DNA of 64,000 nucleotides, from IMG/VR virus record IMGVR_UViG_2974625447_000001, positions 57,808 through 121,807 of that record; one strand, written 5' to 3'. A model generated the notes under the pieces. It saw nothing but the letters and a program-made list of their open reading frames with translations, was not told where the DNA came from and ran no database searches. The position numbers and the translations under genes were made by a program. This document shows positions 507 to 64,000 of the stretch, piece after piece. The stretch is from Streptomyces virus Yaboi. Taxonomy: Duplodnaviria > Heunggongvirae > Uroviricota > Caudoviricetes. The first letter of the stretch is position 1, and every line of letters starts with the position of its first letter.

Positions 507-535
507 TTGACAGGCCCGAACAGGGCTGATAGTGT
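507..535 (+). promoter_or_regulatory. sigma-70-like promoter TTGACA-N17-TAGTGT
   Basis: cTTGACAggcccgaacagggctgaTAGTGTagacc upstream of dnaE, after terminator 483-505. Confidence 0.5.
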
Positions 536-561
536 AGACCTACACAACAAGAAAGGTAACC

Positions 562-3882: not shown

Positions 3883-4056
3883 GGAGCACAATGGAAGAAG
3901 CAGTTAAGGCGGAGGATCTTCTTCGCCTTCTGCTTCTCGCCAAGGGTAACATTGTTATCACGGCTGAGGAGCTAGAGAGGGCGGTCAATGATCGCACTCG
4001 TTATTCAGTGGGTCTAAGTCATGACCCGCTCAAGAAGGAATTTACATTTCACCTGA

Positions 4057-4416: not shown

Positions 4417-4580
4417 GAGCTGATATACTGGCTTCATGAGCACAGAAGCATATTTCCTCCGGGGAGTCGAAGACGAACACCTATTGGTATTCCGAGGCGA
4501 CGATCCGGAGGAAATTTTGTTTATCATTAAGCGGTTGGCCGCCTGCCGCGATAAGAAAATAAAGGCAATGGCAGAAAAAC

Positions 4581-5612
4581 TTGAAGAGGAATGGAACCAA
4601 AGAGAATATGGAAATCGAAGAGGAGATCCTAGCAAAGCTAAGTCCCAAGGTGCTGGCACGGGCAAAGATGGGCTCAGAAGTAATTCTTCAAAAGCAGCCG
4701 ACTCCAAGCACCGGACTTAATGCTGCATTGCGTGGAGGTATCGGCTACGGCCGTCAAACCCTTATTTGGGGGAGCAAGTCAGCCGGTAAGTCAACGTTCT
4801 GCCTAGGAACACTAGGTCTTGCACAGGCAGCCGGTAAGAAGGTAGCATTTATCGACTCAGAGCAGTCCTTTGATCCATCTTGGGCTGAAAGACTGGGAGT
4901 CGATACAAGAAAGCTAATCTACACAGACGTTAAGACAATCGAAGATATGGTTGGGGCCGGTGTCGAGTTTATGAAGGCTGGCATCGATGTTGTAACCGTA
5001 GACTCTATTTCAGCACTTCTGTCATCTGCATACTTTGAGAAGGATAAGAAGGGTGATGAGCTAAAGGATCTTAGCGGTACAAAGCAGATCGGCTCAGAGG
5101 CTCGTGAACTTGCAAATGGTGTTAAGATGCTCAATTACGCCAACAGAAACACAGCTCTACTACTGATTTCTCAGGTGCGTAACAAGATCACTACCTATGG
5201 TGCAATGCATCAGGCGACAGGTGGTCATGCGGTAGACTTCTTTAGTTCTACAGTGATTAAGCTATGGTCATCTGCACGTGAAGCCGATCAGATTCAGGGA
5301 GAAGTCTTCAATGGAGACATGATCCTCAAGGAACCTATCGGGCGAGAAGTCACTTGGAGCATTGACAAGAACAAGCTAGGACCGCCTAACAAGACGGGTA
5401 GTTACAATCTATTCTACGATGGTTCCTTCATCGGAATTGACAATCTTGGTGAAGCAATTGACCTGGCTATCGCTCTGGGAATTGTAGAAAAGAAGGGTAA
5501 CTGGCTCTACTACGAAGACATTAAGGAAAACGGTAAGGCCGGATTCACAGCCGTTCTACGTGCTAACGATGAGCTTTCCACTAAGCTGATTGGCCAGGTG
5601 GAAAATGCGTAA
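4581..5612 (+). CDS. RecA-superfamily recombination ATPase (RadA/Sak4-like)
   Basis: Walker A GSKSAGKST; RecA-like core; true start may be 4608 (MEIEEE). Confidence 0.6.
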   Translation: MKRNGTKENMEIEEEILAKLSPKVLARAKMGSEVILQKQPTPSTGLNAALRGGIGYGRQTLIWGSKSAGKSTFCLGTLGLAQAAGKKVAFIDSEQSFDPSWAERLGVDTRKLIYTDVKTIEDMVGAGVEFMKAGIDVVTVDSISALLSSAYFEKDKKGDELKDLSGTKQIGSEARELANGVKMLNYANRNTALLLISQVRNKITTYGAMHQATGGHAVDFFSSTVIKLWSSAREADQIQGEVFNGDMILKEPIGREVTWSIDKNKLGPPNKTGSYNLFYDGSFIGIDNLGEAIDLAIALGIVEKKGNWLYYEDIKENGKAGFTAVLRANDELSTKLIGQVENA

Positions 5613-6829
5613 TCCTTTCGAAGACGCCCCGGCGCAGAAGAAGCCTGTAGAACCAGGGATTCTCATTGATGGAAGCTTCGCATGTATGACGTGTGGAGAA
5701 GTGGTGGACGAAGCAGAGTATTTGCCAGTCGATAAGATTCTCGGCTGGCTTTGCTCAGAAGGGCATAAGTCCTTGATTGAAAACTTTAATCTAGGAGCGT
5801 AGTGACAGAGCTAAACGAAATCAAGAGAGATGGCGGAAAGGCTCAAAAGAATTCCGGCCGAGGAAAGATTCAGAAGGGAGATGCAAAGCTAGGTCCCTTC
5901 TGTTATGACATCAAAGAGTATGCTAATTCCTTTAGTGTTTCTAAGGATGTCTGGGGAAAGGTTTGCACAGACGCCTTTCGGTCTGGTAGGATGGTACCGG
6001 CACTCAAACTAGTTCTGGGAACTGGTGATGCGAAGACCCGCGTATGGGTAATTGGGGACAACATGTTCCATGAGATGCTAGAAGCCTGGGAGGAAAAGTA
6101 TGGCGAAGCTAATCAGGATTGAGTATATCCGTCGTGACAATGGCGGATGGCTGGCGTACAAGAAGTACGACGACGGCAGCGAGTATGGCGGCCCGGTGGA
6201 AAAGCATGAAGTTGAAAGCATGATTGCAGAAATGTTTGAAGACTTTGGCGGACCACTCATGCCAACCGATCTAGTAAAGGAAGAAAATGAAGCTGATAAT
6301 CACAGTTCCTGAACAGGTATTTGAATACGAAATTCCAGAGGCGACAGCTAAGCGTTACAGAGAACTTCTTGCCCGCGAGCACGAAGACTGGGCAGAGGAA
6401 GATTTCTGGGACGCTTGGACTTCTGATACTTGGCCAGAGTCATATCTGGAGGTAATTGATGACGACTCCGAATGAAGAAAATCCTCTCATTCTTATTTCA
6501 AGGATTTCTGAGTTTCAGGAGATTCACGAATTCATGGAGGATGAAGATCTGGACAAGGCTCTGCATTATGTCATTAAGCTAATGATGAAGCCAGATGTTC
6601 AGAATCCGCTAAAGGCTCAGCAGCTCATCATTCAGCTACAAGCCTTTGCAGCTAAGTTCGCCATGCTGGCAACGATCTATTCCACAATCAAGAAGGATCG
6701 CGCCGGAACTCCGAACAACAACAAGAAGAACATCTACTACACAGCCGCAGCCGAACTGGATAAGGTTGTTCAGTCCTTGAAGTATTCATTCAAGACTCAA
6801 GTATGATACAATGATATTCGCTAAGAGAA

Positions 6830-7612
6830 ATGGATACTATGTCTACAGGACTAATCAAAACAGTACGGCTAGGGAAGAAGCTGTCTTTCGACACTAAGAA
6901 GTTTCTTTCTGTAATTGAGCAGGCTTATGTCAACTCAAGGCCGAAGAGTAGAGTTACCAAGAAGGTTTCCTTTTCTCCGTCTTCTGTAGGTTATGGTGCC
7001 GGTACTTGTCCAAGGTACTGGTACCTAGCTTTTACAGGTGGAGAATTCGTTGATACCTTCGACGGACTAAGTGTCGCCAATATGGCAAACGGTACAGCAG
7101 CTCACGACCGAATCGAAAAGCTTTTTGCTGACGCTGGTGTACTGGAAGAAGCAGAACGTGAAATCACCCATCAGAATCCCCCAATCAGGGGATTTGTTGA
7201 TGTTATCGTGAACTTTGAAGGAAAGCGTGTAGTCGGAGAGTTTAAGACAACTCGCCAGGAGTCTTACATTCATCGTGAGGCAAATGGAACGGCTATCGAT
7301 TACCACAAGGTTCAAGTCCTAATCTATATGCGTGTCCTCGGTCTTGATGAGGGATTTGTTCTTTACGAGAACAAGAACACGCAGGAGCTATTCCTTGTGC
7401 CAGTCATCATGGATGAGGCAAATACGGAATATACGGACTACATCTTCAATTGGATGAACGAGGTAAGAAGGCTTTGGGAAGAAGAGAAGCTTCCTACTCG
7501 TCCATTCAGTCAGAAGAATAAGGCATGCAAGTCATGCGCGCTATTCAATCTGTGTTGGAACGAATCTCCAGAAGGCGACATTACTTACCCACCATTGGAG
7601 GTGAAGAAGTAA
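6830..7612 (+). CDS. Cas4/RecB-like PD-(D/E)XK nuclease with Cys cluster
   Basis: GFVDVIV...GEFKTT (D...ExK) nuclease motifs; N-terminal Cys plus C-terminal CKSCALFNLC (Fe-S-like). Confidence 0.65.
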   Translation: MDTMSTGLIKTVRLGKKLSFDTKKFLSVIEQAYVNSRPKSRVTKKVSFSPSSVGYGAGTCPRYWYLAFTGGEFVDTFDGLSVANMANGTAAHDRIEKLFADAGVLEEAEREITHQNPPIRGFVDVIVNFEGKRVVGEFKTTRQESYIHREANGTAIDYHKVQVLIYMRVLGLDEGFVLYENKNTQELFLVPVIMDEANTEYTDYIFNWMNEVRRLWEEEKLPTRPFSQKNKACKSCALFNLCWNESPEGDITYPPLEVKK

Positions 7613-7874
7613 TTGATTTGCGCCTATGGAGAATGCGGCAACATGTTTGAGCCCAAGACTCATAATCAAAAGTTTTGCAGCTCAGCATGTTGCCGTAAGG
7701 CGACCAACGCACGAATTATGGAAAAGTATTATGCCAGACGTGATCGCAAACGAGGAAAATTGCGAACATGTTCTGAGTGCCCGACCGTTCTTTCCAGATA
7801 CAATAGCTCAGACAAGTGCGAGGGTTGTCATGGAAAGGCCCGGCGGGATGAGAGGGCCGAACTTTTGGAGTTGA

Positions 7875-8450
7875 TTGGTAGTGCCTCTTTCTGACCTTCA
7901 TAAAACGAAGGCTCAGAAGGTAATGGGTATCGACTGCTCAACCAAGTCAATTGCATTCACGATTTTTGACGGAGAAGATTTCTACAGATGTGGAGAGGTT
8001 AATTTCACCGGCTCAACAGTGTTCGAAAGAACCTATGACGCTCACGCAAAGACTTTAGCACTGTTTGAAGAATTTACTCCAGACTTCGTAGCAATCGAAG
8101 CGGCGATTATGGTTAGAAGCACATCAGTTGCCATCAAGATGGCATATGTTTTTGGAGCCGTGATTGCCGCGTTGCTTAGAAGGGGAGCGAAGGTTATTGA
8201 AGTTCCTCCTATGAGCTGGCAGTCATTTATCGGAAATAAGATATTGACCAAGGCTGAGAAGGATGCGATTAAGGCTGAGTTTCCTGGCAAGTCTGCAAGC
8301 TGGTATCAGAATAAAGGCAGGCAGATCAGGAAGCAGAGAACCATTACCTTTGCCAAAGACAAGTTTGGCATTGAGCTAGAAAGCGATAACGTGGCTGACT
8401 CACTTGGAATTGCGTGGTGGGCAGTCAAAAACAAGACTAGAAGGGATTAA
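7875..8450 (+). CDS. RuvC-like Holliday junction resolvase
   Basis: N-terminal MGIDCSTKSIAFTIF (RuvC motif I Asp); about 190 aa. Confidence 0.6.
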   Translation: MVVPLSDLHKTKAQKVMGIDCSTKSIAFTIFDGEDFYRCGEVNFTGSTVFERTYDAHAKTLALFEEFTPDFVAIEAAIMVRSTSVAIKMAYVFGAVIAALLRRGAKVIEVPPMSWQSFIGNKILTKAEKDAIKAEFPGKSASWYQNKGRQIRKQRTITFAKDKFGIELESDNVADSLGIAWWAVKNKTRRD

Positions 8451-8916
8451 CATGATAGTAGCGGGAACTGGACATAGAGATCTGAGGGACCGTGACTGGA
8501 TTGCTGCCCAAACTGAGAAGGCCCTCATCGATATGGGGGCCTCTCTTGTTTACGTAGGCATGGCGTCAGGTTTCGATCTGCTATTGGCGAAAACAGCTTG
8601 GGGTCTAGGCATCCCATTCATTGCTGCAAAGCCCTGGAGGGGCCACAAGCCTCGCAGAGTAGATGAGTATGACTACAGCCGAGCACTGCACTACGCAGAT
8701 GAGGTTGTCAATGTAACCAGTTATGATGATTACCCTGGTGCCTGGGTGTACGAGGAGCGCAACCGATTTATGGTTGACAACGCAGACGCTTATCTGGCAG
8801 TATTGGAAGCTGGCAGGACTGGCGGAACATACAACTGCGTCAAGTACGCATCTCGTAAGAATAAGCCAGGGATGATTATTGACCCATTGATGAAGGAGGT
8901 GACTCGCCTTGGCTAA
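8451..8916 (+). CDS. Rossmann-fold SLOG/DprA-LOG-like protein (tentative)
   Basis: MIVAGTGHRD...LEAGRTGGTYNCV; Gly-rich nucleotide-binding-like motifs; weak. Confidence 0.3.
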
Positions 8917-8934
8917 GCTTTATGAAAGCAGGGC

Positions 8935-9843
8935 TTGGTTGATGGAAAGATACAGAACAAGGACGGCGAAGCAAATTGCCGAAGAGTGCAGAGTGTCAGA
9001 AATGACGATCACTCGATGGCTAGCAAAGCACGGCATTCCAATCAGGAGAAGTCGATGAGATATAACTCTCGTGAAGAGGTAGAGCGTGCGGGGGTGCGTG
9101 GTGCAAAAAGTGAAACAGACCAGCGCGGCACTCGCTACTGGATGCTAGATAGCTTCTGGATGTACGCAGAAGACGATGACTACGCAATGACTCCTCATTT
9201 CAAAGAGGGCCGGTGCTATTGGGAGAGCTGGGTTACAGCTTACATATCTCAAAGAGTAGAGCCTGAATCAGTATTTGTGGACGTAGGTGCCAATGTCGGA
9301 TACTATTCTTTGTGGGCCGCCAATCATGGCTGCAATGTTTTTGCATATGAGCCCAATCACGATCTATTCATGAAGCTTTACAATTCCAAGAGACTGAATG
9401 GATTTGAGATTACTCAGGGCCATCAAGCGCTGGGGGACTCATGGGACCTTGAAGAGAGAACTCTTTACATTCCCAAGAATCACTCTGGCGGGGCGAATCT
9501 CTACGGAATTGATGGAGAGTACACAGAGCAGACTGTGTATGTACAGAGTTTCGATTCAGCGAATTTAATCCCGATGAATTATGATGGAACTGTGTACATG
9601 AAGATTGATGCGGAGGGTGCAGAACCAGAAATCTTCGCTGGAATGAAGTGGTGCTGGAGACAACTTCCAATGGTTCTATTCATGGAATGGGATCTGACGA
9701 GATATGATAGATCATTCGGTGAGAAGCTTGTTGACAGTGGAAAGGTTAGCCTGATAGAGTACGATGGTACAGCCAGAGAACTAGATCTTGATGGCCTGCT
9801 AGGATTGAAGGAACTACGAATGATTGTGGTGGAAAATGATTAA
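8935..9843 (+). CDS. FkbM-family methyltransferase
   Basis: VDVGANVGYYSLW SAM-binding motif typical of FkbM family; true start may be downstream (9056). Confidence 0.5.
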   Translation: MVDGKIQNKDGEANCRRVQSVRNDDHSMASKARHSNQEKSMRYNSREEVERAGVRGAKSETDQRGTRYWMLDSFWMYAEDDDYAMTPHFKEGRCYWESWVTAYISQRVEPESVFVDVGANVGYYSLWAANHGCNVFAYEPNHDLFMKLYNSKRLNGFEITQGHQALGDSWDLEERTLYIPKNHSGGANLYGIDGEYTEQTVYVQSFDSANLIPMNYDGTVYMKIDAEGAEPEIFAGMKWCWRQLPMVLFMEWDLTRYDRSFGEKLVDSGKVSLIEYDGTARELDLDGLLGLKELRMIVVEND

Positions 9844-10453
9844 AATCGGAATGACCGGTGCTCATGGCACTGGGAAAACATCAATGGCTCAGGCCATGAT
9901 AAACAGCCCGGCGTTTAAGGATTTCGTCCTTGTTCCTTCTACAGCTAGGCAAATCAATAGCTATGGTCTTCCCATTAATAGAGAGGCTACGGAACTAAGT
10001 CAAATCCTTGTTCCAATTCTCAGAATGGTAGACGAGCACGAAACAACGACAAATCCCCAGAACACTCTTTACAAGCATGGGATCATTTCTGATCGCACGC
10101 CTCTAGATTCTCTGGCATACACATTCTATCAGAATGAATATGTATGGGAAAATGGCGATCTAGTGGAAAACGTCGCCAGGCGTCTGACAGAAATGCACAT
10201 GAAGACTTATCACTTCGTTCTGTACTTCCCCATTTATTGGGAGATGGAAGAGGACGGTGTGAGAGACCCAGATGAGTCTTATCGAGTCAAGATTGATGAC
10301 TACATCATTCAGTGTCTAGAAATGCTCAACGTCCCATATCTGACTGTTCCAGATGTTAATGCTGATGATCGAGTGGAATGGTTCATCGAAGAGGTTCAGG
10401 CTCTTTATGCAGAGGCGGAGCGTCAAGCGCGGCGCTTCAATGGTCTGCTATAA
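9824..10453 (+). CDS. P-loop nucleoside/nucleotide kinase (dNK/NadR-like)
   Basis: IGMTGAHGTGKTS Walker A; ISDRTPLDSLAY resembles dNK ERS motif. Confidence 0.45.
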   Translation: MWWKMIKIGMTGAHGTGKTSMAQAMINSPAFKDFVLVPSTARQINSYGLPINREATELSQILVPILRMVDEHETTTNPQNTLYKHGIISDRTPLDSLAYTFYQNEYVWENGDLVENVARRLTEMHMKTYHFVLYFPIYWEMEEDGVRDPDESYRVKIDDYIIQCLEMLNVPYLTVPDVNADDRVEWFIEEVQALYAEAERQARRFNGLL

Positions 10454-10787
10454 TAATCTTGAAAGCGAGGAGATATGGGAACCCCTACTAAGAGACGTTC
10501 CAAGGTAAAGAACCCTGATTCATGGTGGCAGCAAGCCTACCTTGGAATTGACTATATCGTTCCCGCGTACGAGTTTGAACTTGACGGAGAAACCATTCTT
10601 CCGAAGGCTCTGATCAAGTTCAAGAACACGCGAGGCGTTTACAAGTTTCGATGCGTAGCCACGAACATCAAGACTGGCAAGACCTGGATTGACTGCATTA
10701 ATGTAGACACAGGTGAATGGAAGTCATTCTATGTGGAAAAGCTTAAGGGACTAGTAAAGCCTAAGCACCCACGTAGAAGGAGAAAGG

Positions 10788-11312
10788 TTGCCTAAAGAAC
10801 TAGAGCAGATCGACCGAATAGAAAGAATGAATGAGGTCGTCACTGCATATCTAAAGGGCGACAATCCTACACAGATTGCCAAGATCACTGGGCTTAAGCG
10901 CGCCGAGGTGCTTGAATACATTGAAGAGTGGCGAGTCGTCGCTCAGAATAACAAGACAATTCAGGCGCGAGCTACAGAAGCATTGACTTCCATGGATGAA
11001 CATTACAACATGATCATCCGAGAATTGTGGGAGACAATGGAGCAGGCAGACCTAAACAACGATTTTAAGCTAAAGGCTACCGTTCTAAAGTCTCTTGCAG
11101 ATGTAGAAGGAAAGCGAGTTGACCTTTTGCAAAAGGCCGGGTTGCTGGATAATCAGCAAATCGGAGATGAGGTTATTGAAATGGAGAAGAAACACGAGAT
11201 TCTTATCGGAATTCTCCGCGAGGTAACTTCTGATTGTCCTCACTGCAAGGTGGAGGTCGCCCGAAGGCTTTCCAGCGTAACTGGCAAAACGGAGACTATT
11301 GTCGTTCCCTGA
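10788..11312 (+). CDS. HTH protein, possible terminase small subunit
   Basis: NPTQIAKITGLKRAEVLEYIEEW helix-turn-helix; sits immediately upstream of terminase large subunit. Confidence 0.35.
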   Translation: MPKELEQIDRIERMNEVVTAYLKGDNPTQIAKITGLKRAEVLEYIEEWRVVAQNNKTIQARATEALTSMDEHYNMIIRELWETMEQADLNNDFKLKATVLKSLADVEGKRVDLLQKAGLLDNQQIGDEVIEMEKKHEILIGILREVTSDCPHCKVEVARRLSSVTGKTETIVVP

Positions 11313-11317
11313 TCAAT

Positions 11318-11372
11318 AATCCTATATCCTTTCATGATATACTATTGCATATGAAAGGATATAGGATTTTTT
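11318..11372 (+). terminator. 18-bp perfect inverted repeat plus T-tract abutting the terminase start codon
   Basis: aatcctatatcctttcat-N15-atgaaaggatataggatt-tttttTGATG; right arm contains the only RBS-like AGGAT for terminase. Confidence 0.5.
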
Positions 11373-13194
11373 GATGTCAACCGACTTTACTGAGTTTTTC
11401 AACGCTCTCTCCGATGAAGACTTCGAAGAGATTCCTGTTGATATTGAGACTTTTGTTCAAAGCCCTGATTACTTGGGGATGCCTCATCTGTCAGAGTATC
11501 AATATCAACTTATTCGTGCTTCCAGCCAAATCTACAAGGAGAGCACTCTTTATAACATTTATGAGGCACAAAAGGCCCGGCAGCGATGGGAAGAAACCTG
11601 TAATGAAGTAATTGCTTGTCTAGGCAAGGGTAGTGGCAAGGACTTTACATCTACTATTGCATGCGCCTACATCGTTTACCTCTTGCTATGTCTGCGGAAT
11701 CCAGCAAAGTATTTTGGCAAGCCTGCTGGAGACTCCATTGACATTCTGAATATTGCTATCAATGCCGCACAGGCCAACAACGTCTTCTTCAAGGGTTTCA
11801 AGAGCCGCATCGAAGGCTCACCATGGTTTGTAGGAAAGTTCACAACCAAGTCTGGTCATATCGCTTTCGACAAAAACGTCAACGTCTACTCAGGCCACTC
11901 CGAGCGAGAGGCGTGGGAGGGCTATAACCTGCTGTACTGCGTCCTTGACGAGATCTCTGGTTTTGCACTAGACTCAACATCAGGTAACGAGCAGGCCAAG
12001 ACAGCCGATGCCGTTTATAAGATGTATCGAGCATCCGTAGACTCTCGATTCCCGGCGGAAGGAAAGGTAGTTCTTCTATCATTCCCTCGCTTCAAGAATG
12101 ACTTTATTTCACAGCGCTATGAGGCAGTAGTTGCAGACAAGCAGGTTGTAGAGAGAAGTCATACATTCAAGCTTGATCCAGATCTCCCAGATGATATTGA
12201 AGAGAACAAGTTCACTATCAAGTGGGAAGAAGATCATATTATCTCCTACAACATTCCACGTGTGTACGCTCTAAAGCGTCCAACGTGGGAAGTTAATCCT
12301 ACTCGTAAGATCGAAGACTTCACCACAGCATTCTTTACTGACCCTGTTGATGCCCTTTCCCGTTTTGCGTGTATGCCACCTGACGCGATTGACGCATTCT
12401 TCAAGGATAAGGAGAAGGTTGAGGCCGTATTTGTAAAGCCTAACGGTGTTGACGAGACTGGCGCTTTCAGGAGTGATTTTGTGCCGAAGGAAGGCGTGCG
12501 TTATTACGTTCACGTTGACCTTGCGCAGAAGCATGACCATTGTGCCGTGTCTCTTGCCCATGTTGAGAAATTTGTTCAAAAGAAGATCGGAGGACAGCTC
12601 AACGAGGTTTTGCCATTTGTTGTAGTGGATGCTGTGCGCTGGTGGACACCCAAGCCAGGCAAGGATGTTGACTTCGCTGATGTTCGAGAGTATATTGTTG
12701 GATTGAAGCGAAGAGGTTTCGATCTCCGTCTTGTAACATTTGACCGCTGGAACTCTGAGGACCAGATGAAGTATCTGCGAGGAGTCGGTATCAACTCCGA
12801 GATTCTTTCAGTGGCAAAGAAGCACTATGAAGACCTGAGCTGGGTCATCTATGACCAGAGGCTTTTGGGACCGGACATTCCTCTTCTGAGAAAAGAACTT
12901 CTTTCTCTGAGAATCATGCCAAATGATAAGATTGATCACCCTAGAACTGGATCAAAGGACTTGGCGGACGCAACTTGTGGAGCTGTGTTTAATGCAATTG
13001 CGCATACACCACGAGAGCAAGATGCTGTCATTGAGATCCAGACCTATGAATCTTTGAGGCGTGCAGAGATAGAGGCTCGACGCGAGGAGCTTGACACATC
13101 ACGTGAACGTGATAATGTTATTGTAGCCCCTCGTGAGAGGCGTGAGATGCCTGATGATATTCAGGAATATCTCACAAGGCTAGAAATTATCTAA
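11371..13194 (+). CDS. terminase large subunit
   Basis: 607 aa; Walker A-like LGKGSGKDFTST; C-terminal nuclease-like region; TTG-ATG start (MM). Confidence 0.8.
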   Translation: MMSTDFTEFFNALSDEDFEEIPVDIETFVQSPDYLGMPHLSEYQYQLIRASSQIYKESTLYNIYEAQKARQRWEETCNEVIACLGKGSGKDFTSTIACAYIVYLLLCLRNPAKYFGKPAGDSIDILNIAINAAQANNVFFKGFKSRIEGSPWFVGKFTTKSGHIAFDKNVNVYSGHSEREAWEGYNLLYCVLDEISGFALDSTSGNEQAKTADAVYKMYRASVDSRFPAEGKVVLLSFPRFKNDFISQRYEAVVADKQVVERSHTFKLDPDLPDDIEENKFTIKWEEDHIISYNIPRVYALKRPTWEVNPTRKIEDFTTAFFTDPVDALSRFACMPPDAIDAFFKDKEKVEAVFVKPNGVDETGAFRSDFVPKEGVRYYVHVDLAQKHDHCAVSLAHVEKFVQKKIGGQLNEVLPFVVVDAVRWWTPKPGKDVDFADVREYIVGLKRRGFDLRLVTFDRWNSEDQMKYLRGVGINSEILSVAKKHYEDLSWVIYDQRLLGPDIPLLRKELLSLRIMPNDKIDHPRTGSKDLADATCGAVFNAIAHTPREQDAVIEIQTYESLRRAEIEARREELDTSRERDNVIVAPRERREMPDDIQEYLTRLEII

Positions 13195-16851: not shown

Positions 16852-18660
16852 ATGGTGAATTTCAACAAGACTCATTCAAAAGAACTTGTGAAACTCCCTG
16901 ACTCAGACCTAGAGCTTAGCTCTAGGTCTTTTAGGCTTTCCAGTCAGGGTGCACTTAAGCATGTCTCCGGAGGAGCGCGTCTAAGTGTGAAGAATCTGAT
17001 TGACTGGTTGACCGTAGCAGACTATAAAATCGAGATTGCTAAGGCCAAGCACGAGGGGAACTTCGAGAAAGCCCGCAAGCTTCGAATGGAACAACAGAAG
17101 CAGGCACAACCACGCCGAAAGCATTTCTACATTTCCCTAGGGGCGATCCTAGCCGTCACAGCATGGCTAACTAGCGCCTTCGGAGCTGTCACTTTTGGCG
17201 CGGCAGCAGTGAGCCTCTTGATTCTCTTTGCCATCGTAGGTGTAACTAATAAGACTTACATCTTTGGAGAAGAGACAGCCGAAGAGGAAGAACCAATGGC
17301 ACCATTTCCAATTGCTGACGCTCGCAACAGAGAAGAGGCTATTGAATGTCTACGCAGAGCCCTTCTTGCGGAAGGCATCACACCAAGAACGATTCTTGAT
17401 CCGACAAGATATAATTGGGGATGGGAGTTCACGGTTATTCTTCGCAAGGGCAAGCCAGATGATGTAATGGCTAAGACCAAGGATATGGAAACTCTGATGA
17501 GATTGCCTTCTGATGGAATGCTTGTCGCAGCTACCAGATTCCGAGCAGAGGTCATTATCAGACTAATGCAGTCAGACCCATTTGCTGATCTAACGCCTCA
17601 GCCAAGAGCAGAGCCTTTGTCACGGTCAATCAAGAATAAGTACAAGGTTGCCCAGAGAATGGACGGAAAGCATCTTGAGCTTAGTCTGCTGAGAAATCAC
17701 GCAGTCATTATCGCCGCGCCTGGTGGTGGTAAGTCTATGTTTATGCGAACACTGGCAGATATCACTACTAGCTGTAGAGACTGTGTAACTTGGGACATTG
17801 ACCCCGGCGGAAATGGTCTTGAGGTATTTGGAGACGCTATTGCACGTAGAGGTAGAACCGAAGCTGAAATTGAAGAAATGCTAACTGAGGCTCTGGAGTA
17901 CACCAAGATTCGTGCAAAGAAGCTCACAAAGCTTCGTATGGGCGATAACTGGCAGCCAACCAGAGAACACCCTGCCCTTGTTATCTTCATTGATGAGTTT
18001 ATTCAGCTCAACAAGAAGTGCAAGGATCTGGCTATTGACATCATTCGCAATGGACGCAAGTCAGCAATTACTGTAATTCTTGCAGCACAGCAGGCAACCA
18101 AGGATCAGCTTGGAGCGGCTATCGCAGACTCTGTGTCAATTAAGGTAATGTTTGCCTCTCGTCATGCCGACGTTCCTTTGGTATTTGGAGAGGGGGCCAT
18201 CAGCCAAGGATGGAGGCCAGATAAGCTTCACCCTGCTTCTGGAGAAGATATTGAAGATGCAGGAAAGTGTTACATCATGGGTGGGGGATCAAGAGAGCCT
18301 TATCTCTACAAGGCGTTCCCACTTGATCCAGAAGAGGCAATTGAAATCGGTGACGAACGTGCCGGTGAAGGAATTGTTGAGCTAGACAAGGACACTTATC
18401 TTGATGTAACAGTCACAGATGTAACAGACAAGAGGTTGCTGGAAGATGTTCTAGACATTTTTGAGAACTTTGATGAGCATGACTGGCTACCAGCAAGTAT
18501 CTTGACCAAGGAGCTTCGAGGCTACGGACACATCTTGACAGCCCGTCAGCTACATGAGATCCTAGGTGATACCGGCAGAGAGAGCCGCATCTGGGAAGGC
18601 TCTAAGTATAAGGTTGCCGGTTACTTTAGAAAGAACATCGAGAAGCAACTGGAGCGGTAA
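16852..18660 (+). CDS. FtsK/SpoIIIE-like DNA translocase ATPase with N-terminal TM segments
   Basis: TM helices (ILAVTAWLTSAFGAVTFGAAAVSLLILFAIVGV); Walker A IIAAPGGGKSMFMRTL; Walker B VIFIDEF; ORF track starts at 16777 but that overlaps a tRNA-like gene. Confidence 0.6.
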   Translation: MVNFNKTHSKELVKLPDSDLELSSRSFRLSSQGALKHVSGGARLSVKNLIDWLTVADYKIEIAKAKHEGNFEKARKLRMEQQKQAQPRRKHFYISLGAILAVTAWLTSAFGAVTFGAAAVSLLILFAIVGVTNKTYIFGEETAEEEEPMAPFPIADARNREEAIECLRRALLAEGITPRTILDPTRYNWGWEFTVILRKGKPDDVMAKTKDMETLMRLPSDGMLVAATRFRAEVIIRLMQSDPFADLTPQPRAEPLSRSIKNKYKVAQRMDGKHLELSLLRNHAVIIAAPGGGKSMFMRTLADITTSCRDCVTWDIDPGGNGLEVFGDAIARRGRTEAEIEEMLTEALEYTKIRAKKLTKLRMGDNWQPTREHPALVIFIDEFIQLNKKCKDLAIDIIRNGRKSAITVILAAQQATKDQLGAAIADSVSIKVMFASRHADVPLVFGEGAISQGWRPDKLHPASGEDIEDAGKCYIMGGGSREPYLYKAFPLDPEEAIEIGDERAGEGIVELDKDTYLDVTVTDVTDKRLLEDVLDIFENFDEHDWLPASILTKELRGYGHILTARQLHEILGDTGRESRIWEGSKYKVAGYFRKNIEKQLER

Positions 18661-28334: not shown

Positions 28335-28448
28335 AGGAGTGTAGTTTAATTGGCAAAACCGCGAAATGCACTGCCGAAAGTGATGTGGCGTAGCCCGCAG
28401 TGAGTAGGTAACAGAGTAGCAGTTGCGGGTTCGAGTCCCGTCGCTCCG
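28335..28448 (+). ncRNA. tRNA-like RNA with about 40-nt internal insertion (pseudo-tRNA or insertion-containing tRNA)
   Basis: 5' acceptor-like aggagtg plus canonical D-arm gtttAATTGGCAaaac; 3' T-arm gcgggTTCGAGTcccgt plus cgctccg; 64 nt between them with no anticodon arm. Confidence 0.3.
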
Positions 28449-28585
28449 CTAGCCTGAGACGACGATCCGATGTAGGTCCCCTAGGGCTTGCGCAGGCCCG
28501 AAGGGCATTCGGGAAAGGTTCCTAGCTAGGTCCGTCTATCAATAGGGTGAGAGTTTTGACAGTTTCCTCATAATAAACTGTCCCC

Positions 28586-39259: not shown

Positions 39260-39537
39260 GGGGATGCCTTGGTTTCGACTGGCGCGGATAACCTTAGTTT
39301 GCAGCCTGACATTGAGGAGATGTCATTAAAAAGCCTCAAACCTATAAATGCCAACTCTAACGTTGCATCTGCCTACGCCCTAGCGGCGTGATGGCCGGGC
39401 GGCAACTGCCTAGGAACAGAAAGTTGCGAATGTTTGGCCCGGTGGGGATAAACACATGCAGTACCTGCTTGACACATGGCTGTGTATAGACTACTGTTAG
39501 ATTCGTCAGGACGCGGGTTCGACTCCCGCCATCTCCA
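39260..39537 (+). ncRNA. ssrA: tmRNA (ssrA), tag reading frame ANSNVASAYALAA
   Basis: 5' GGGGATGCCTTGGTTTCGACTGG resembles E. coli tmRNA 5' end; 3' GGACGCGGGTTCGACTCCCGCCATCTCCA nearly identical to E. coli tmRNA T-arm/acceptor; acceptor ggggatg/catctcc with G3-U70; internal frame 39350-39391 GCC AAC ... TAC GCC CTA GCG GCG TGA. Confidence 0.8.
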
Positions 39538-40150
39538 CTTAAGGATCATCATGCAGATGACTGCAAGGTCTACTATGATAGACTTTGATCTCACCGAGCG
39601 CGATGCTCGAACAATTCAGAAAAGCATGAAGACTGGACCAGTCACTCTCAAGGTTACTAGGGTTCAGATCAGCTACACATATGGTGCCGTTCTTGTTGGC
39701 ACTGAGCGTAATCCTGGTCCTCACTACAAGGTGAGGGTGTCAGGATATCGAATGAAGGCTGGCATGAAGCAACGGGATACTGTTGTCCAGCACAGCTATC
39801 TCAACCCTAATCTGCCGGATTGGCTGGAGCAGATGGTTGTTGACAACGCCCCAAACTGGTACTAGGATGTAGACATGCCGAACTGGATGCGACTACCTAA
39901 CACACGCAAGGATGTCTCACTCGGATACCGAATGGGATCTGCGTTCGAAAATGGCTATGGCGATGAGGGACCTCTCGCCAGGGGCCTTGTTGTTGGAGGA
40001 TGTGTTTTCCTCCCCCTTCTAATTGTCATCGCTCTCTTTGGCGGTGCAGCCTACGGACTCTGGGAGCTTGCCACATGGCTCTGGACTATGATAGCCTGAT
40101 GAAGAAGTGGATGGACACCATCCGCAAGATCGAGCAGCGTAAGGACTGAA

Positions 40151-58873: not shown

Positions 58874-60599
58874 GAGGATCAGAATGCTCACTCTTGACAG
58901 GATTGAGTTCAATGGCGTAAGCCACACGGGATTCGCAAATTCCGTAGAAACATTCCTCATGGCCGTTACGCCGTCAGGCAAGAGGGCTCTTGATGTTGTG
59001 ATTCCCGACAAGCTTCCGAAGATGAATAATCGCAGGTGGCTTACCAAGGGTAAGGATGTCAAGCCTAGCGCTCTTTTCGATGAGGCTCGTAACCTCATGA
59101 TTAAGCACGGCAAGGCGAGAGGGATTGCAGTAGATGCAAAGGGTCAGATCTGTGTAGGTTTCGCTCTTTGGATGGCGGCAACAGGCAAGAAGGCGAACAA
59201 CGCTTCTGTTGTCCGAATGCTCCAGTACGCAGCAGTTGAGTCTGCTCGTCTTGGTTATGAAGGTCGGGCGGCATATGTTCAGCTCAATGACAACAGCCGT
59301 ACAACCTTTGCAGATGTTCTTCGTTATCTTGAGGCGGCAAGGGATCGTGCCCGAGTTCGAGGAGAATGACTGGGAGCTAGCTGGATATGCTACCGAAGCA
59401 GATTTCCAGCTAGACCAGGCAGATTGGGAAAGGGTGGCTGAGAGCTTCGCCAGGATGACTGAATCCTTTGCAAGAATTCAGGCGGCGGTGCAGGACGCCC
59501 AGCTTTCTATCAATTCATTTAGAGGGGACGATATGGCTGTGGACATAAGGCGCAGTGAATACCCAATGACAGACGGCTATGGAACCTATTGGTACGACCC
59601 AAGCGGTATGCATTCCAATGAGCCGGGCGAATGTTTTATGTGCAAGAAGCTGACAAACAGGATTGACATTGACTTTCATGGTTACTTCTGTGACTCAGAT
59701 GAATGCAACGAACAGATCCGAATAGATCTTGAAAGGGCAAACAGTGAAGATCGGAATCGAACTGAGGACGATCAATAAGACCTCTCACTTCTCAGACTTG
59801 CTAGACTTGTCTGACAAGACAGAGGATGAGATCGCAGATATCAAGGACGACATTGAGTCAATTCTCGGCGGCGTTTCTACGGGTGACGGATTGACCATGC
59901 TTATTGAAGGCAGAACGTATGCCTTCCCGCCAAGCGCAATTGAATATGTAACAACATACGAGGCCGATTGACAAATCCATATGTTCTGATCTAGCATGAG
60001 AACATTATGAGATATACAATCGTAAAGGAGCCTCTTAAAAGAGGTCGGGTGGTGGAGGGCTACAATTACTGCATCCTTGATACAAAGGTTGGCAAGGTAG
60101 TCTTCCGTCATTCATCAGAATTCAAGGCTGAGTTCATCAAGGACTCCTTCAATGACGCAAATGTAAGCAGCCGGTTTGAATACGAATTGCCAGGCGACGA
60201 AAGCATTGAAGATCTAGATGAGTCAGCATTCCGAGGAGAATGAATGCTGGAAAAGCTAGCCTGGCGATATTTGGCCCGGCGCATGGAAGTCCATCGTAAG
60301 TCAGGTAGACACCATGAGGCAGACCATATAAGAGCAGCCCTTGCAACTAGACAACAAAAGCAATGCGCACTCTGCTGCATACTGGAGAATACCGATTGGC
60401 TCTCTTGGGCAACAAGATTCGACCCAACGTCCGACATGGACAAGGACAGTGAGCTATATGCAAGTGTTATTAAGGATGAATCCCGGTTTGGAGATGTGGT
60501 TCGGAGAAGTGGTCTGGACTGACGAAGACTGGGATTGGGATGAAGAGGACCGGCTTATTGCTGGTCCTTTCCCATTTTCCAGAGGCAACTCAAATTCCA

Positions 60600-61720
60600 C
60601 AGATTTTTAGTCAAAGTCCGATTTTTTAGTCAGAAGTGGCTCCAACGAATTTTTAGTCACAAATCGCCCGGCGGCGTGGCATCCCCCATACATATAAGAC
60701 TCATAAGACATAGTGCATATAAGACAATACCGAAGCTCTGTGAGCCTTTGTAATAAAGAAGGGGCAGTAGGAGACATGGTTCATTTAAAATAACGGGAGA
60801 GAGCAACGCAGGCATGCTGTCAGCCTTGATAGAAGACGTATAGAGCAGTGGCAGAAACAGCAGACATATCTTGATGTCGAGATAGTTATAGCAGCAGAAC
60901 TGCTGTCGGCAGGCGAAGTTATCCACAACCAAACGCACAACCTGTGGATAACTTTCTGAGATCATTCGTTATCTTGACATAGAGATACTTTCTAAAAGTT
61001 AGTGTGTAATGACGCAGGTAAATCAGCGGCGAAACACACGCATTTCCTTCATTTCTAAGGCCAGAAGGGGGTTCCAGCCTTCAATATGCAGCCAAGATAC
61101 GCAGCCAGCCTTTTAAATCCATCAATCAGGCCCTAAAACAGCCCTTCAAAACAAGGAGAAATCGGCCTGTTTCCTTCCAAAATCAATCAAAAATGCCCCA
61201 AAACCTGCGAAAACTAGCCAAATCTGCAAAATTTTGGACACTTTCGTAAAGGGCATGCCAGATAGACCTTAGAATCATAGGATGTTGGGCAGATTTTGCC
61301 TTCATTCGTAAAGCAGCCTGGCTAGACAGCCTGATTATGCAGCCATGATAGTCAGCCAGAGTATTCAGACATGACAGACTGATTGTTCTCTGTGTCTTAT
61401 ATGTAGAATTGACCCGGTGGGTAGTAGTTAGTTGTTATATGTCTTATATAGAGCAAGGGCACCTAGACCACCGGCCCAACATCTCTCCTTGTACTATGTC
61501 TTATATCGTAAAACAGAAGAAGCCTGCCAAAAAGAACTGGCAGGCTTTGTTGCATGTCTTATATAAGACAGACCGAACTAACGATCTTCAATTTGAATTC
61601 GTAAAATCGTCCGGGTTTTCAGGCCCATTCGTAAAGGCCCGGAAATTCGAGCCCGGAAATTTTGACGCCTATCGTAAAGGGCGAAAAATCGGACATCAGG
61701 GTCAAATCAAAAAATAGATG
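60600..61720. repeat. iteron-rich non-coding junction (candidate replication origin / partition or packaging site)
   Basis: ATTTTTAGTCA x3 (60603-60659); CATATAAGAC x3 (60691-60725) and inverted copies ATGTCTTATAT x4 (61391-61570, including 14-bp palindrome GTCTTATATAAGAC); TCGTAAAG x5 (61244-61680); GCCCGGAAATT x2 (61636-61661); GCAGCC(A) repeats 61088-61350. Confidence 0.75.
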
Positions 61721-61920
61721 TACAGTGATGCTGTTAGTTAGAGTAAGCAATGAACCGCCCCGGCTAGCGCTACGCGCCACAGGATAAAATTGAAAGGTCC
61801 CTGGGCTGCTGCCGACCATCAGCTATTTAACCCCTTGCCAGAACTGACTGATAGGGGACCCAGGAACACAACCTCATGACCTCACTACAATAGTGTAACA
61901 AGGTCATCGCTCTGTGTCAA

Positions 61921-62124
61921 TCACCACTCCAGCTCATCGACCACACAGTAGTGAGAGACGAACGGAACGACCCACCGAGTGTTGAGCAGCTTGCCCCTTT
62001 CCTCCCACAGAGTGAGAGTCTTGGTTTCGTTGTTCATCTCGATACCGTTGGTCATGATCCCTGTGAATTCCAGCTCCCTTCGGACGCCTTCTTCGAGAAC
62101 GATCACAGTTACGGTGTGAGTCAT
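61921..62124 (-). CDS. hypothetical protein (minus strand)
   Basis: 67 aa; RBS gaagggaatcgcATG on minus strand; TAGACA-N17-TAGACT promoter upstream. Confidence 0.4.
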   Translation of the reverse strand: MTHTVTVIVLEEGVRRELEFTGIMTNGIEMNNETKTLTLWEERGKLLNTRWVVPFVSHYCVVDELEW

Positions 62125-62219
62125 GCGATTCCCTTCGTTGGTACTAGTCTAACAGAGTACAAGGGACATGTCTACCACCGGCCAAAATAGCCGGGGCGGC
62201 CCGAAGGCCGCCCGTGGGC

Positions 62220-62537
62220 TTAGTTCCAATAGGACTCGGACTCGTAGTCCTCCATCATTTCCTCGAAAGCCTCAGCGAGCCACACAGCCCGCTCCTTACG
62301 ACGGATCTCACGGCGGAGGAGAGGACCCTTCTCACCCTCATCCGCGTAGCGGTGGGGCAGGATGCGGCTGCTGGCACTGACACCGCCGTTGGCGCTGGAG
62401 TTCTGAGAGCAGAATCCGCAGCGGCAGCTACGACGACCGGTGCCGGGAATCGGAATGCCCTTGGCACTGTTGGCAAAGGCGACGGAGCGACGGTGGCCCA
62501 CGATGCGGTCCTGAGTGAGCGCGTAGTAACCCATACA
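62220..62537 (-). CDS. small Cys-containing protein (minus strand)
   Basis: MGYYALTQDRIVGHRRS...CRCGFC; RBS gggaaggaattgtATG; start refined from track ORF 62220-62633; terminator 62183-62206. Confidence 0.4.
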   Translation of the reverse strand, partial: CMGYYALTQDRIVGHRRSVAFANSAKGIPIPGTGRRSCRCGFCSQNSSANGGVSASSRILPHRYADEGEKGPLLRREIRRKERAVWLAEAFEEMMEDYESESYWN

Positions 62538-62550
62538 ATTCCTTCCCTCG

Positions 62551-62581
62551 AACTGATACGAGTCTAGCAGAGTAGTCGGCC
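62551..62581 (-). promoter_or_regulatory. minus-strand promoter TAGACA-N17-TAGACT
   Basis: minus strand reads gGTAGACAatggccgactactctgcTAGACTcg upstream of gene 62220-62537; same motif upstream of 61921-62124 (plus coordinates 62140-62172) and of 62638-63705 (63742-63775). Confidence 0.45.
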
Positions 62582-62637
62582 ATTGTCTACCCGAACCGGG
62601 GCGGCCAAAAGCCCCCGCCGAAGCGGGGGCCATTGAC

Positions 62638-63705
62638 TCAGGAAGCCAGAGCGAAGCCCAGGACAGCCCTACGGATCTTGTTCTTCTCGGAGTTGATCAC
62701 CGGGTCGAAACCGGAAGCAGCGGCGAAGAGGTTGTCCACCTCGCCCTTACGCGGCATGCGGTACCAGTCCAGACGCTCCGTCAGGGCGTTCAGCGCACCC
62801 GCCATGGTGCCCTGGAGAGACTGAGTGGTCTTGGGGCCGTCGCCCGTGTCGGTGAAGATCCCCATCAGCAGGTCACGCTTGTTGTCCCACTTGACCTGAG
62901 AACCCTTGACGTTCTCCTTGGGACGGTCGCCGTAGACCTCACGGATGATCTCATCGAACTGGTTCTTCGTGCACTCCGTGCGGAACAGCTCGTTCATCTC
63001 ACGCTCGAACTCATCGGCGTAGGCGAACGTGATGCTCAGAGCCTCACGCGCAGCGGCCATGCGGCCCTCGATAGTCTGCGTGTGGCGCATCTTGAACGTC
63101 TGCTTCACACCGTTACGGAGTGCGAAGTTCAGCGTGTTCTGACACACGACACGGACCGGGGTGACGCTCGCCTGCACCGCAAGAGAGCCGTCGTGGGAGG
63201 TGTTGACCAGAAGATACATGTTGGTCACGTCGTCGTCACCGACCAGCACCTCACGGCCGATACGCAGAGATCCGAAGACCTGCGTACCATCCTTGATAGA
63301 ACCGGCAGTTTCCCACGTGCCACCGCCCGCGAGGATGCCGTCACCGAAGGCGAACAGCTCCTCATTCTGGACGACCTTGTATCGCTCCGCGACGATACCG
63401 AGAGAGTCCGCCTCGCCGTCGAACGGGTTGGTACGGATCACCTCGAAAGCGTTCTTCTTTGTGCGCCCCTTGCGCTCCAGCAGTTCCAGCCGGACGTTCC
63501 AGTTGGAAAGGTGTGCCAGGTCCAGCATCTCTCGCGTGGACAGCTCACCCTCGAAAACAGTGCCAAGGTTGTGCCAGGCAGGCTCAGCGCGGGTGGCGAA
63601 GGCGACCTGACCCCTGGAACCAATCTCAAGACCGTGCATCTTTGCTCCTAGTGTAGTCGTTTCTTCTAGCTTACTGCCATCATGACTGTCTGTCAAAGTA
63701 GTCAC
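62638..63705 (-). CDS. 355-aa protein, DUF932-like (phage/plasmid family) or structural protein
   Basis: contains NTSHDGSLAVQ motif that I recall from DUF932/TIGR03299; RBS ggagcaaagATG; terminator 62594-62622. Confidence 0.4.
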   Translation of the reverse strand: MTTLTDSHDGSKLEETTTLGAKMHGLEIGSRGQVAFATRAEPAWHNLGTVFEGELSTREMLDLAHLSNWNVRLELLERKGRTKKNAFEVIRTNPFDGEADSLGIVAERYKVVQNEELFAFGDGILAGGGTWETAGSIKDGTQVFGSLRIGREVLVGDDDVTNMYLLVNTSHDGSLAVQASVTPVRVVCQNTLNFALRNGVKQTFKMRHTQTIEGRMAAAREALSITFAYADEFEREMNELFRTECTKNQFDEIIREVYGDRPKENVKGSQVKWDNKRDLLMGIFTDTGDGPKTTQSLQGTMAGALNALTERLDWYRMPRKGEVDNLFAAASGFDPVINSEKNKIRRAVLGFALAS

Positions 63706-63838
63706 GCTGGCCTGCCGAACGGGGTTTCCCCCTGTTCATGTTCTTAGTCTAACAGGGTCGGCCTGATCTGTCGAAGAGATTTGGGACATGATCATTTCGC
63801 CGGGGCGGCTTTGCGGCCCCGGAGGGCCGCTAGCCAAT

Positions 63839-64000
63839 TAGGGAATCATGCCGAGCGGTTCCCACGTTTCGATAATCTCGTCATCCGTGACAGCCGCTAC
63901 AGCCTGGTACTCACCCTCTCGCACGTTCGAAGAGGTGTCATAGACAACGACACGGTAACCCGCATCGTCCAAGTCGTAGCCGAAGTTTTCGAACCAGCGT
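63839..64000 (-). CDS. hypothetical protein, C-terminal fragment (gene continues beyond window)
   Basis: minus-strand frame ...ETWEPLGMIP* ending at TAA 63839-63841; terminator hairpin 63797-63822. Confidence 0.35.

Follow-up and report, generated by a model that had tools for sequence, protein, structure and literature searches.

Repeat-rich region at the terminal repeat boundary of Streptomyces phage Yaboi, with a candidate role in end generation and DNA packaging

Introduction

The genome of Streptomyces virus Yaboi contains a region of about 1.3 kb (positions 60600-61900) that is crowded with short repeats and lies between genes facing each other. All positions refer to the window, which is the whole analysed stretch of 64,000 nucleotides (positions 57,808 to 121,807 of the IMG/VR record IMGVR_UViG_2974625447_000001), unless record positions are named. 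A first-pass annotation, made from the sequence alone, compared the region with iteron-type replication origins, parS-like partition sites and packaging recognition sites. Which of these functions could such a locus serve? The region is almost certainly the junction of the unique genome with the right copy of a 12.4-kb direct terminal repeat (DTR), that is, a DTR boundary and its cut site. Among the three earlier proposals a packaging recognition site fits best, and the region holds the left-end position at the DTR boundary. We consider it rather likely that the region generates the genome end and is recognised during packaging in this long-DTR phage, a packaging role of the repeats being suggested by their position and conservation.

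For the phages of cluster BE, the presence of a DTR and its rough size were known before. No description of the boundary architecture, the cut motif, the genus-specific facing arrays, the fixed palindrome or the RNA was found in the open-access literature on BE phages, Karimacvirus and Samistivirus.

Results and discussion

Position of the region in the Yaboi genome

The 1.7 kb around the region are 100% identical to Streptomyces phage Yaboi NC_048730.1, a linear record of 131,250 bp that belongs to Karimacvirus, Stanwilliamsviridae, actinobacteriophage cluster BE. Window positions were obtained by subtracting 57,807 from the record positions. A query taken from the region found two matching places in each related record, which indicates a terminal repeat. 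Window position 61012 is equivalent to record position 1, and the 2,989 bases from there to the window end are identical to record positions 1-2989. The DTR measures 12,432 bp, and the end of the window holds the first 2,989 bp of its right copy. The region straddles the start of this copy, with about 400 bp in the unique genome and about 900 bp in the repeat. As expected of a DTR boundary, the sequence on the right side is duplicated at the opposite end of the genome, and the end position is homologous in relatives. Genome ends in cluster BE were set experimentally, by many reads starting at a single base and by an approximately two-fold coverage between both ends (PMC5764925). BE phages are known for DTRs of 11-12 kb (PMC10690885).

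The convergent gene arrangement described earlier was found again, with gp261 ending at 60610 on the plus strand and gp263 at 61921-62124 on the minus strand. The junction is convergent because the leftward-transcribed repeat genes abut the rightward-transcribed unique genome. The AT-richness given in the first-pass annotation holds with respect to the flanks, as the GC content is 0.447 in the region, 0.486 to the left and 0.592 to the right, but the region is only mildly AT-richer than the bulk genome. A sharp step in composition occurs at the junction, from 0.447 in the region to about 56-59% in the repeat genes, with 48.6% in the unique genome. This step suggests that the repeat module differs in origin or in selective regime.

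The earlier statement that the region lacks a convincing open reading frame (ORF) was confirmed. The annotated gp262 and three other ORFs (66-102 codons) are interrupted by frameshifts or stop codons in the five related species Amabiko, Karimac, KentuckyRacer, Wofford and LukeCage, and gp262 was left unannotated in Karimac, Amabiko, Wofford and LukeCage. A protein-coding reading of the region was rejected on this lack of conservation, and no conserved protein-coding gene was present at this place in the homologues. The region thus appears to be non-coding for protein, and the analysis removes the doubtful gene call gp1/gp262.

Cut site at the left genome end

The deposited left ends of the related genomes are homologous. 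In 34 out of 34 related records matching the first 129 nt of the repeat, position N of the Yaboi repeat corresponded to record position N or N ± 1. In an alignment of seven species, the 12 nt to the left of the cut (TAGTGTGTAATG) were invariant (100% in Karimacvirus), and the 12 nt to its right were 67% conserved. The motif before the cut has the consensus (G/A)T(G/A)TGTAAT(G/A/T)^(G/A), where the caret marks the cut, and was present in every junction read, in two genera and in metagenome contigs. More than 15 genomes carry it, including Mildred21, Samisti12, Paradiddles, NootNoot, Peebs, Jay2Jay, StarPlatinum and two IMG/VR genomes, as do three of the five soil-metagenome contigs recovered. 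The sequence TGTGTAATG occurs a single time in the 131-kb genome. The region therefore shows the conserved, sequence-specific cleavage point expected of a terminase recognition site, in the form of the invariant TAGTGTGTAATG and a unique motif. The cut-site motif obtained in this way is precise, testable and conserved across two genera.

Two metagenome contigs have an end close to this site. The soil contig JACCDR010176796.1 terminates exactly at the homologous cut site, and contig JGI24746J21847_1000051, with 11,590 bp approximately of repeat size, begins 30 nt ahead of it. The boundary appears to be a place where assemblies break. In the Jay2Jay record NC_029098.1, the sequence matching position 1 is located about 660 bp further left, after TAGTGTGTAATG, and a repeat of about 11,438 bp would result. 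The Jay2Jay repeat is listed as 10,778 bp (PMC5764925), a length that does not fit NC_029098.1.

The other DTR boundary, between record positions 12432 and 12433, is equally conserved across both genera. It reads ...TATGCGAAGCATGTAT^C(A/G)TACA...AAAATTACTAACATTT, and its left flank is alternatively quoted as ...GCATGTAT. This boundary is the next-ranking distinct repeat-dense region of the genome. In every case an HNH endonuclease gene has its end about 187 bp inside this boundary, and it is the only gene of the repeat annotated on the plus strand besides the doubtful gp1. The HNH endonuclease, gp28 in Yaboi, is a possible partner in end formation.

Repeat families and their conservation

The repeats named in the first-pass annotation were present at their places, and their counts were slightly corrected. 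The 1.32 kb of the region contain 97 shared 9-mer pairs on both strands, the highest value in the 131-kb genome (median 14, 95th percentile 33), while 500 dinucleotide shuffles gave 9.7 ± 4.0 pairs with a maximum of 28. Allowing at most one mismatch, TGTCTTATAT had nine matches in the window, against 3.1 ± 1.7 expected, and seven of the nine are located in the region. Genome-wide, TGTCTTATAT and exact copies of TTCGTAAAGG were found only at the junction and in its left-end copy, and TTTTTAGTCA forms one further cluster at record position ~10.5 kb. The motif columns were 88-100% identical among six Karimacvirus species, compared with 68% at the remaining 877 positions. The motifs around the cut are thus under selection, and in part they are specific to the genus. 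The coordinates of the features are collected in Table 1.

Table 1. Features detected at the DTR boundary of phage Yaboi (window positions; the cut lies between 61011 and 61012).
Feature	Position	Strand	Remarks
TTTTTAGTCA triple, (A/T)TTTTTAGTCA	60603-60659	+	direct copies at 60604, 60623 and 60650; overlaps the gp261 stop codon; conserved in Karimacvirus
Left arm of the inverted array, GCCCGGCGG then CATATAAGAC-type x3	60664-60726	+	285-348 bp left of the cut; 93% conserved
Perfect 12-nt inverted repeat, AAGTTATCCACA N15 TGTGGATAACTT	60916-60954	none	two consensus-type DnaA boxes, 15 nt apart
Most AT-rich stretch	60948-61010	none	minimum GC 0.28, 50-nt windows starting at 60948-60961; between palindrome and cut
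Invariant TAGTGTGTAATG	61000-61011	+	left end directly after; cut between 61011 and 61012
Right-hand DTR, first 2,989 bp	61012-64000	none	identical to genome positions 1-2989
Invariant block GAAGGGGGTTCCAGCCTT	61063-61081	+	52-70 bp inside the repeat; 100% invariant
Two CAGCC units, 13-bp period	61085-61108	+	repeat search and alignment
Two ~26-nt copies, ATTTTG..N..TTCGTAAAG	61229-61316	+	61229-61254 and 61291-61316; repeat search and alignment
Four tandem 13-bp CAGCC units	61310-61359	+	repeat search and alignment
Right arm of the inverted array, TGTCTTATAT x4 direct and one inverted	61393-61570	+	100% conserved, 98% invariant
gp262/gp1, 'hypothetical protein'	61496-61717	+	spans the terminator hairpin; probably not a gene
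Hairpin GAAGCCTGCCA / TGGCAGGCTT	61519-61548	none	predicted minus-strand terminator; T-rich tracts on both strands; inside gp262
Three TTCGTAAA(G/A) family copies and GCCCGGAAATT x2	61598-61682	+	copies at 61598, 61628 and 61671; repeat search and alignment
Candidate structured RNA, three-way junction, 71 nt	61797-61867	-	covariation, 16 sequences
RNA helix P1	61867-61858/61806-61797	-	consensus fold
RNA helix P2	61857-61853/61835-61831 and 61848-61845/61840-61837	-	consensus fold
RNA helix P3	61823-61820/61811-61808	-	consensus fold
Promoter-like site TTGACA-17-TACACT	61890-61920	-	TG extension, sigma-70/HrdB type; 10 out of 12 matches

On the unique side, CATATAAGAC is exact at 60691 and 60716, and a degenerate copy, TCATAAGAC, lies at 60701. 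Smaller conserved blocks are located at about 60746-60765 and 60806-60818. The 11-mer ATTTTTAGTCA was found in two exact copies and one copy with one mismatch. A twin of the TTTTTAGTCA-type triple lies in the repeat at record 10487-10530, where it flanks a CCGCCCCGG element upstream of gp23. The presence of both triples suggests a shared regulator.

On the repeat side, the TTCGTAAAG family comprises four full and two partial copies, all in a single orientation. A 38-nt block, TTCGTAAAGGGCATGCCAGATAGACCTTAGAATCATAG (61243-61280), is enclosed by copies of this family and is fully invariant. GCAGCC occurs four times on the plus strand (61088, 61101, 61313 and 61339), and the wider CAGCC core ten times, including six units with a 13-bp period. 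Four copies of TCGTAAAG are present in the region (61244, 61306, 61629 and 61672); the fifth copy counted earlier lies at 60020, outside of it. Two further copies were detected for TCGTAAAA (61506 and 61599). The two copies of GCCCGGAAATT, at 61637 and 61651, correspond to a duplication in the Yaboi clade, and the TTCGTAAA core with its flanks is also repeated in Samistivirus, at about +213 to +683 from the cut. In the right arm of the inverted array, the direct copies of TGTCTTATAT start at 61393, 61440, 61497 and 61555, and the inverted copy at 61561 forms the 14-bp palindrome GTCTTATATAAGAC at 61556-61569. The TATA-containing motif arrays were also considered as ordinary sigma-70 promoters, and this was rejected, with only weak sites on the plus strand and no usable -35 partners.

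Exchange of motifs between genera

The CATATAAGAC copies (about -320 to -295) and the GTCTTATATG copies (+381 to +550) face each other across the cut. Samistivirus-type genomes (Samisti12, Mildred21 and two IMG/VR genomes) lack the CATATAAGAC/GTCTTATATG motif of Karimacvirus. In Samisti12 and Mildred21, CCCCTATATACAT is located at about -306/-262 and the complementary ATGTATATAGGGG at about +473/+537; a third lineage possesses CCCCTATATACAT at -268/-223. The GC-rich arm (CCGG..) flanking the Samistivirus-type motifs is likewise inverted. A conserved architecture with a changed motif sequence, at matching positions and orientations, would be the pattern expected of recognition sites that co-evolve with a DNA-binding protein. 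Such a swap seems hard to reconcile with chance or simple sequence drift. The first-pass annotation had raised the case of a terminal-repeat region whose repeats are unrelated to protein binding, and this case agrees with the data in one part only: the region is indeed DTR sequence, but its repeats are conserved and one family is swapped by genus.

The left edge of the region tolerates the insertion of mobile elements. In KentuckyRacer (967-1714 of the compared segment), Enygma, Spilled and CeilingFan, an endonuclease VII/HNH gene is located between the last unique gene and the TTTTTAGTCA repeats. In these insertion-carrying relatives, the aligned downstream segment begins at the second TTTTTAGTCA copy.

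DnaA-box palindrome and AT-rich segment

Two DnaA-like boxes span 60918-60952, which is the only place in the genome with two such boxes within 150 bp. The spacer between them is 15 nt long in Yaboi and 3 nt long in Wofford. In both genera the right box starts at a constant -69 to -71 relative to the cut, despite the diverged sequence in between, and the TTATCCACA palindrome is retained in both genera. Its conserved arms of 12 nt exceed the 9-nt DnaA box, and the palindrome may be bound by host DnaA or by a dimeric phage protein. The adjoining stretch with a GC content of 0.28 belongs to the lowest 0.14% of all 50-nt windows in the 64 kb.

Terminator and structured RNA

The hairpin inside gp262 keeps its pairing in three clades with different letters, namely GCCTGCCA/TGGCAGGC, GCCTCCC/GGGAGGC and GCCACCC/GGGTGGC. 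It is likely a bidirectional intrinsic terminator, as predicted from its sequence.

Positions 61788-61920 are the only part of the region that blastn still detects in more distant BE phages. Sixteen minus-strand sequences from both genera and two uncultivated viral contigs were aligned here, and they support an RNA of 23 base pairs. Standard pairing was found in 99.7% of the 368 cells, eight pairs show compensatory double changes, and none of 500 shuffles reached the covariation score. Shifting the partner by 1-3 columns lowered the pairing to 36-61%. Of the pairs, one is an invariant U.G and a second is U.G in seven sequences; the minus strand is taken as the RNA strand because these pairs would be A.C mismatches on the plus strand. 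Folding of the single sequence is unremarkable (z = -1.5), and the support for the RNA therefore comes from covariation.

The promoter-like site immediately follows the stop codon of gp263 and immediately precedes the RNA. Samistivirus possesses TTGACA-17-TAACAT at the equivalent place. The RNA could alternatively be an element of the 3' untranslated region of the gp263 messenger RNA. An Rfam search of 60400-62300 gave no match at the gathering threshold, and the only match with E<=1, to SprX (19 bits against a cut-off of 80), lies elsewhere. A pattern scan of 185,579 bacterial genomes revealed no copy, and in these genomes the RNA is therefore neither of host origin nor carried by a prophage. 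In IMG/VR and metagenomes, matches were found only in BE-type phage contigs (in IMG/VR, BE-type phages and two uncultivated contigs). As part of the terminal repeat, the RNA has two copies in each genome. The 71-nt RNA is a candidate for a new RNA family and adds a covariation-supported small RNA to the BE phage group.

Proposed role in end generation and packaging

In replicating concatemers, one copy of the repeat would lie between unique regions, and the junction would be the substrate on which the packaging nuclease produces the left end. The right end would be produced by a cut at record position 12432, and the repeat would be duplicated during processing. Duplication of the repeat while concatemers are processed is part of T7-type models. 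The cut-proximal DnaA-like box, about 70 bp upstream of the cut, would be an element of recognition or architecture that positions the cut, and the AT-rich, easily melted 50-60 bp between palindrome and cut would be part of the end-generating site. Similarly, the facing motif arrays, about 300 bp to the left and about 380-560 bp to the right, would act as elements of recognition or architecture. The TTCGTAAAG and CAGCC arrays, which share one orientation and lie immediately inside the end, could anchor the packaging complex to the DNA molecule being packaged, a function that cosB has in lambda. The repeat-side part would also belong to the early leftward module of the repeat, with its bidirectional terminator and promoter-driven RNA.

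Several points weigh against this proposal. No binding protein was identified and no terminase small subunit was recognised, and only position and conservation connect the repeats with packaging. Candidates for terminase subunits are gp47 and its neighbours, and the phage also encodes the DNA-binding proteins gp8 (Lsr2-like) and gp36. The terminator, the RNA gene and the TTTTTAGTCA triple are more simply explained as transcriptional elements. The other DTR boundary is as conserved as this one, yet it is flanked by different motifs. A recognition sequence shared by both boundaries was rejected, as the resemblance between TGTAAT(G)^ and TGTAT^ is too short. Species differ in motif spacing by a few bases, Wofford by 14 nt, so a rigid nucleoprotein machine is not implied. 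Packaging, injection-stop, origin and transcriptional roles are not mutually exclusive.

Alternative explanations

The region could have a purely transcriptional function, in which operators, terminators and an RNA gene insulate the rightward unique operons from the leftward repeat genes and the coincidence with the genome end is secondary. This would account for the covarying bidirectional terminator, the promoter with its structured RNA, the convergent junction and the recurrence of the TTTTTAGTCA triple around the repeat-gene promoter at record ~10.5 kb. We regard it as improbable, since it leaves unexplained the invariant cut-site motif, the fixed distance from palindrome to cut, and the confinement of the main motif families to this locus among ~230 genes; in addition, the TATA-containing motifs are without usable -35 partners. 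A DnaA-dependent origin is also unlikely. Here, host DnaA would bind the box pair, the adjacent AT-rich 50-60 bp would unwind, and the direct repeats would be iterons for a phage initiator. The conserved, consensus-type box pair directly adjoins the most AT-rich 50 nt, as an unwinding element would, several repeat families have the same orientation, and the phage possesses genes for a DnaB-like helicase, a primase and SSB, with no annotated initiator. Nonetheless, there are only two DnaA boxes, and the conservation of 12-nt arms beyond the 9-nt box suggests a different, dimeric binder. Instead of at least three regular, helically phased iterons of 17-22 bp, the region shows spacings of 62, 323 and 43 for TTCGTAAAG, of 47, 57 and 58, varying between species, for TGTCTTATAT, and a period of 13 bp for CAGCC. 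No initiator or replication gene is adjacent, the neighbours being small hypothetical genes, and the helicase and primase genes are located about 60 kb away, at record 54.8-57.4 kb. The GC-skew analysis called for in the first-pass annotation placed the cumulative minimum at record 18.5 kb and the junction at the maximum. This is weak and not decisive evidence against an origin, because the skew tracks gene orientation. Thus, the iteron origin proposed earlier is weakly supported at best, with the box pair next to the AT-rich 50-mer as the part that holds.

A stop signal for DNA injection, as in phage T5, would imply that the right repeat enters first and that transfer pauses at the inner boundary while the early genes of the repeat are expressed. 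The Yaboi topology mirrors that of T5, where a 1.2-kb untranslated repeat region containing DnaA boxes lies across the inner boundary of the first-entering repeat. Part of the T5 repeat genes (1-6022) run from the terminus towards the boundary, as all Yaboi repeat genes in the right copy do, and the ~14-20 self-contained terminator-promoter units of the repeat are what a takeover module would be expected to contain. However, nothing points to two-step entry in any phage of cluster BE, or to which end goes first. Yaboi has two DnaA boxes outside the repeat, compared with about eight inside it in T5, and in place of paired boxes with 3-bp spacing in large inverted repeats we found one pair, with 15 nt between its boxes (3 nt in Wofford only). 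The DnaA-tether model of T5 is itself unproven (bioRxiv 10.1101/866236). Among the eleven larger of the ~27 repeat proteins, no Pfam or PHROG family annotated as A1, A2 or dmp was found, although homology is possibly too remote. A functional analogue of the T5 injection stop, in which the right repeat (~20 early units, two RNA copies) enters first and pauses at the junction and the copy at the left terminus is the packaging start, is therefore a doubtful reading. If true, two-step DNA delivery would be a convergent strategy of long-repeat siphoviruses in Gram-positive, high-GC hosts. The parS-like partition site of the first-pass annotation is very improbable. It would be bound by ParB-like proteins encoded in the repeat, and two small repeat proteins, gp10 and gp14, are annotated with a ParB N-terminal-like domain, but these have only 103 and 118 amino acids and no DNA-binding domain was detected in them. 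The region has no match to the parS consensus at <=3 mismatches, and the annotated stretches that were inspected contain no gene labelled ParA. The virulent lifestyle of the phage, which has no plasmid state (PMC10690885), also counts against partition.

Around the GC-skew minimum, a divergent strand-switch region was observed at record 17857-18410. One of the four TTATCCACA boxes of the genome lies at record 18739, about 330 bp from this region. The strand switch at record ~18 kb is an alternative place to look for the replication origin.

Comparison with known systems

Lambda cos and SPP1 pac consist of a sequence-specific cut, repeated protein-binding sites on both sides and a bend or architectural site. 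The proposed end-generating and packaging-recognition region of Yaboi resembles both of them (cosQ-cosN-cosB and pacL-pacC-pacR) in that a specific cut lies between repeats that would be protein-binding sites, together with a putative bend or architectural element at a fixed distance. Unlike them, Yaboi has blunt-defined boundaries of a 12.4-kb repeat, and not 12-nt cohesive ends or a headful series, and the region is several-fold larger. At the concatemer junction of T7 and T3, the DTR is duplicated in processing and short repeat arrays (pacB) flank the boundaries. Yaboi is similar in its short repeat arrays flanking the DTR boundaries and in the need for DTR duplication. The T7 repeat has 160 bp and is non-coding, whereas that of Yaboi has 12.4 kb and ~27 genes, and there is no sequence similarity.

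The closest analogue is Repeat Region 3 of T5, a putative injection stop signal located at the edge of the 10.1-kb left repeat; the Yaboi arrangement is its mirror image. Repeat Region 3 is an untranslated stretch of 1.2 kb in which repeats and palindromes occur together with DnaA boxes, and 270 bp of it extend past the repeat boundary (bioRxiv 10.1101/866236). Similar to T5, Yaboi is a long-repeat siphovirus with an untranslated repeat and palindrome region at the inner boundary of its long repeat. In both phages this region has about 1.2-1.3 kb, contains direct and inverted repeats, palindromes and TTATCCACA-type DnaA boxes, and is conserved better than the neighbouring ORFs. It straddles the boundary into unique DNA (270 bp in T5, 400 bp in Yaboi), and a second copy lies at the genome terminus. 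The two differ in that there is no sequence homology and that the host of Yaboi is an actinobacterium. The ~8 boxes of T5 are paired in 131-bp inverted repeats, whereas the 2 boxes of Yaboi form one palindrome outside the repeat.

Iteron origins such as lambda ori and plasmid oriV share with the Yaboi region the same-orientation repeats of ~20-26 bp, the DnaA boxes and the AT-rich segment. Unlike these origins, the Yaboi region shows irregular spacing, no adjacent initiator and a GC-skew maximum, and its repeats flank a physical DNA end.

The recognition and duplication of ends in long-DTR phages, such as T5, SPO1 and the BE actinophages, is still poorly understood. The palindrome at a fixed distance and the genus-specific arrays are sites for which cognate proteins could be sought. 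BE phages could become a second, independent model beside T5 for the biology of terminal-repeat boundaries.

Organisation of the terminal repeat

The sequence CCGCCCCGG or its complement CCGGGGCGG occurs 22 times in record positions 1-12,488 and is absent from the 106-kb unique part. The window copies at 62191, 62596 and 63800 correspond to record positions 1180, 1585 and 2789. Fourteen out of the 22 copies are intergenic among the leftward repeat genes, in a recurring module. Its order is a terminator hairpin, CCGCCCCGG, nnAAAAGATCTT (also quoted as AAAAGATCTT), TTGCAT (-35), ~17 nt, TAGACT (-10), a ribosome-binding site and ATG. From this recurring module of terminator and promoter, the repeat can be read as a chain of ~14-20 separate, self-contained early transcription units with predicted host-type promoters.

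The SPO1 terminal redundancy of 13.2 kb, a host-takeover module, is similar to the Yaboi repeat in that it contains numerous small early genes, which each possess a strong host-type promoter and a terminator. This likeness concerns the gene content of the repeat and not the boundary region, and no homology is present. The pre-early region of T5 is known to be organised in such units as well. A comparison of the repeat size with SPO1 and with the pre-early region of T5 was made before (PMC5764925).

Other features of the window

The BE group is already notable for more than 40 transfer RNAs (tRNAs) and a transfer-messenger RNA (tmRNA). ARAGORN detected 41 tRNA genes between 14472 and 56284 of the window, together with a tmRNA at 39260-39538 (tag ANSNVASAYALAA), all on the plus strand. 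Four further weak tRNA-like matches were found with Rfam, including one of 115 nt at 28335-28449.

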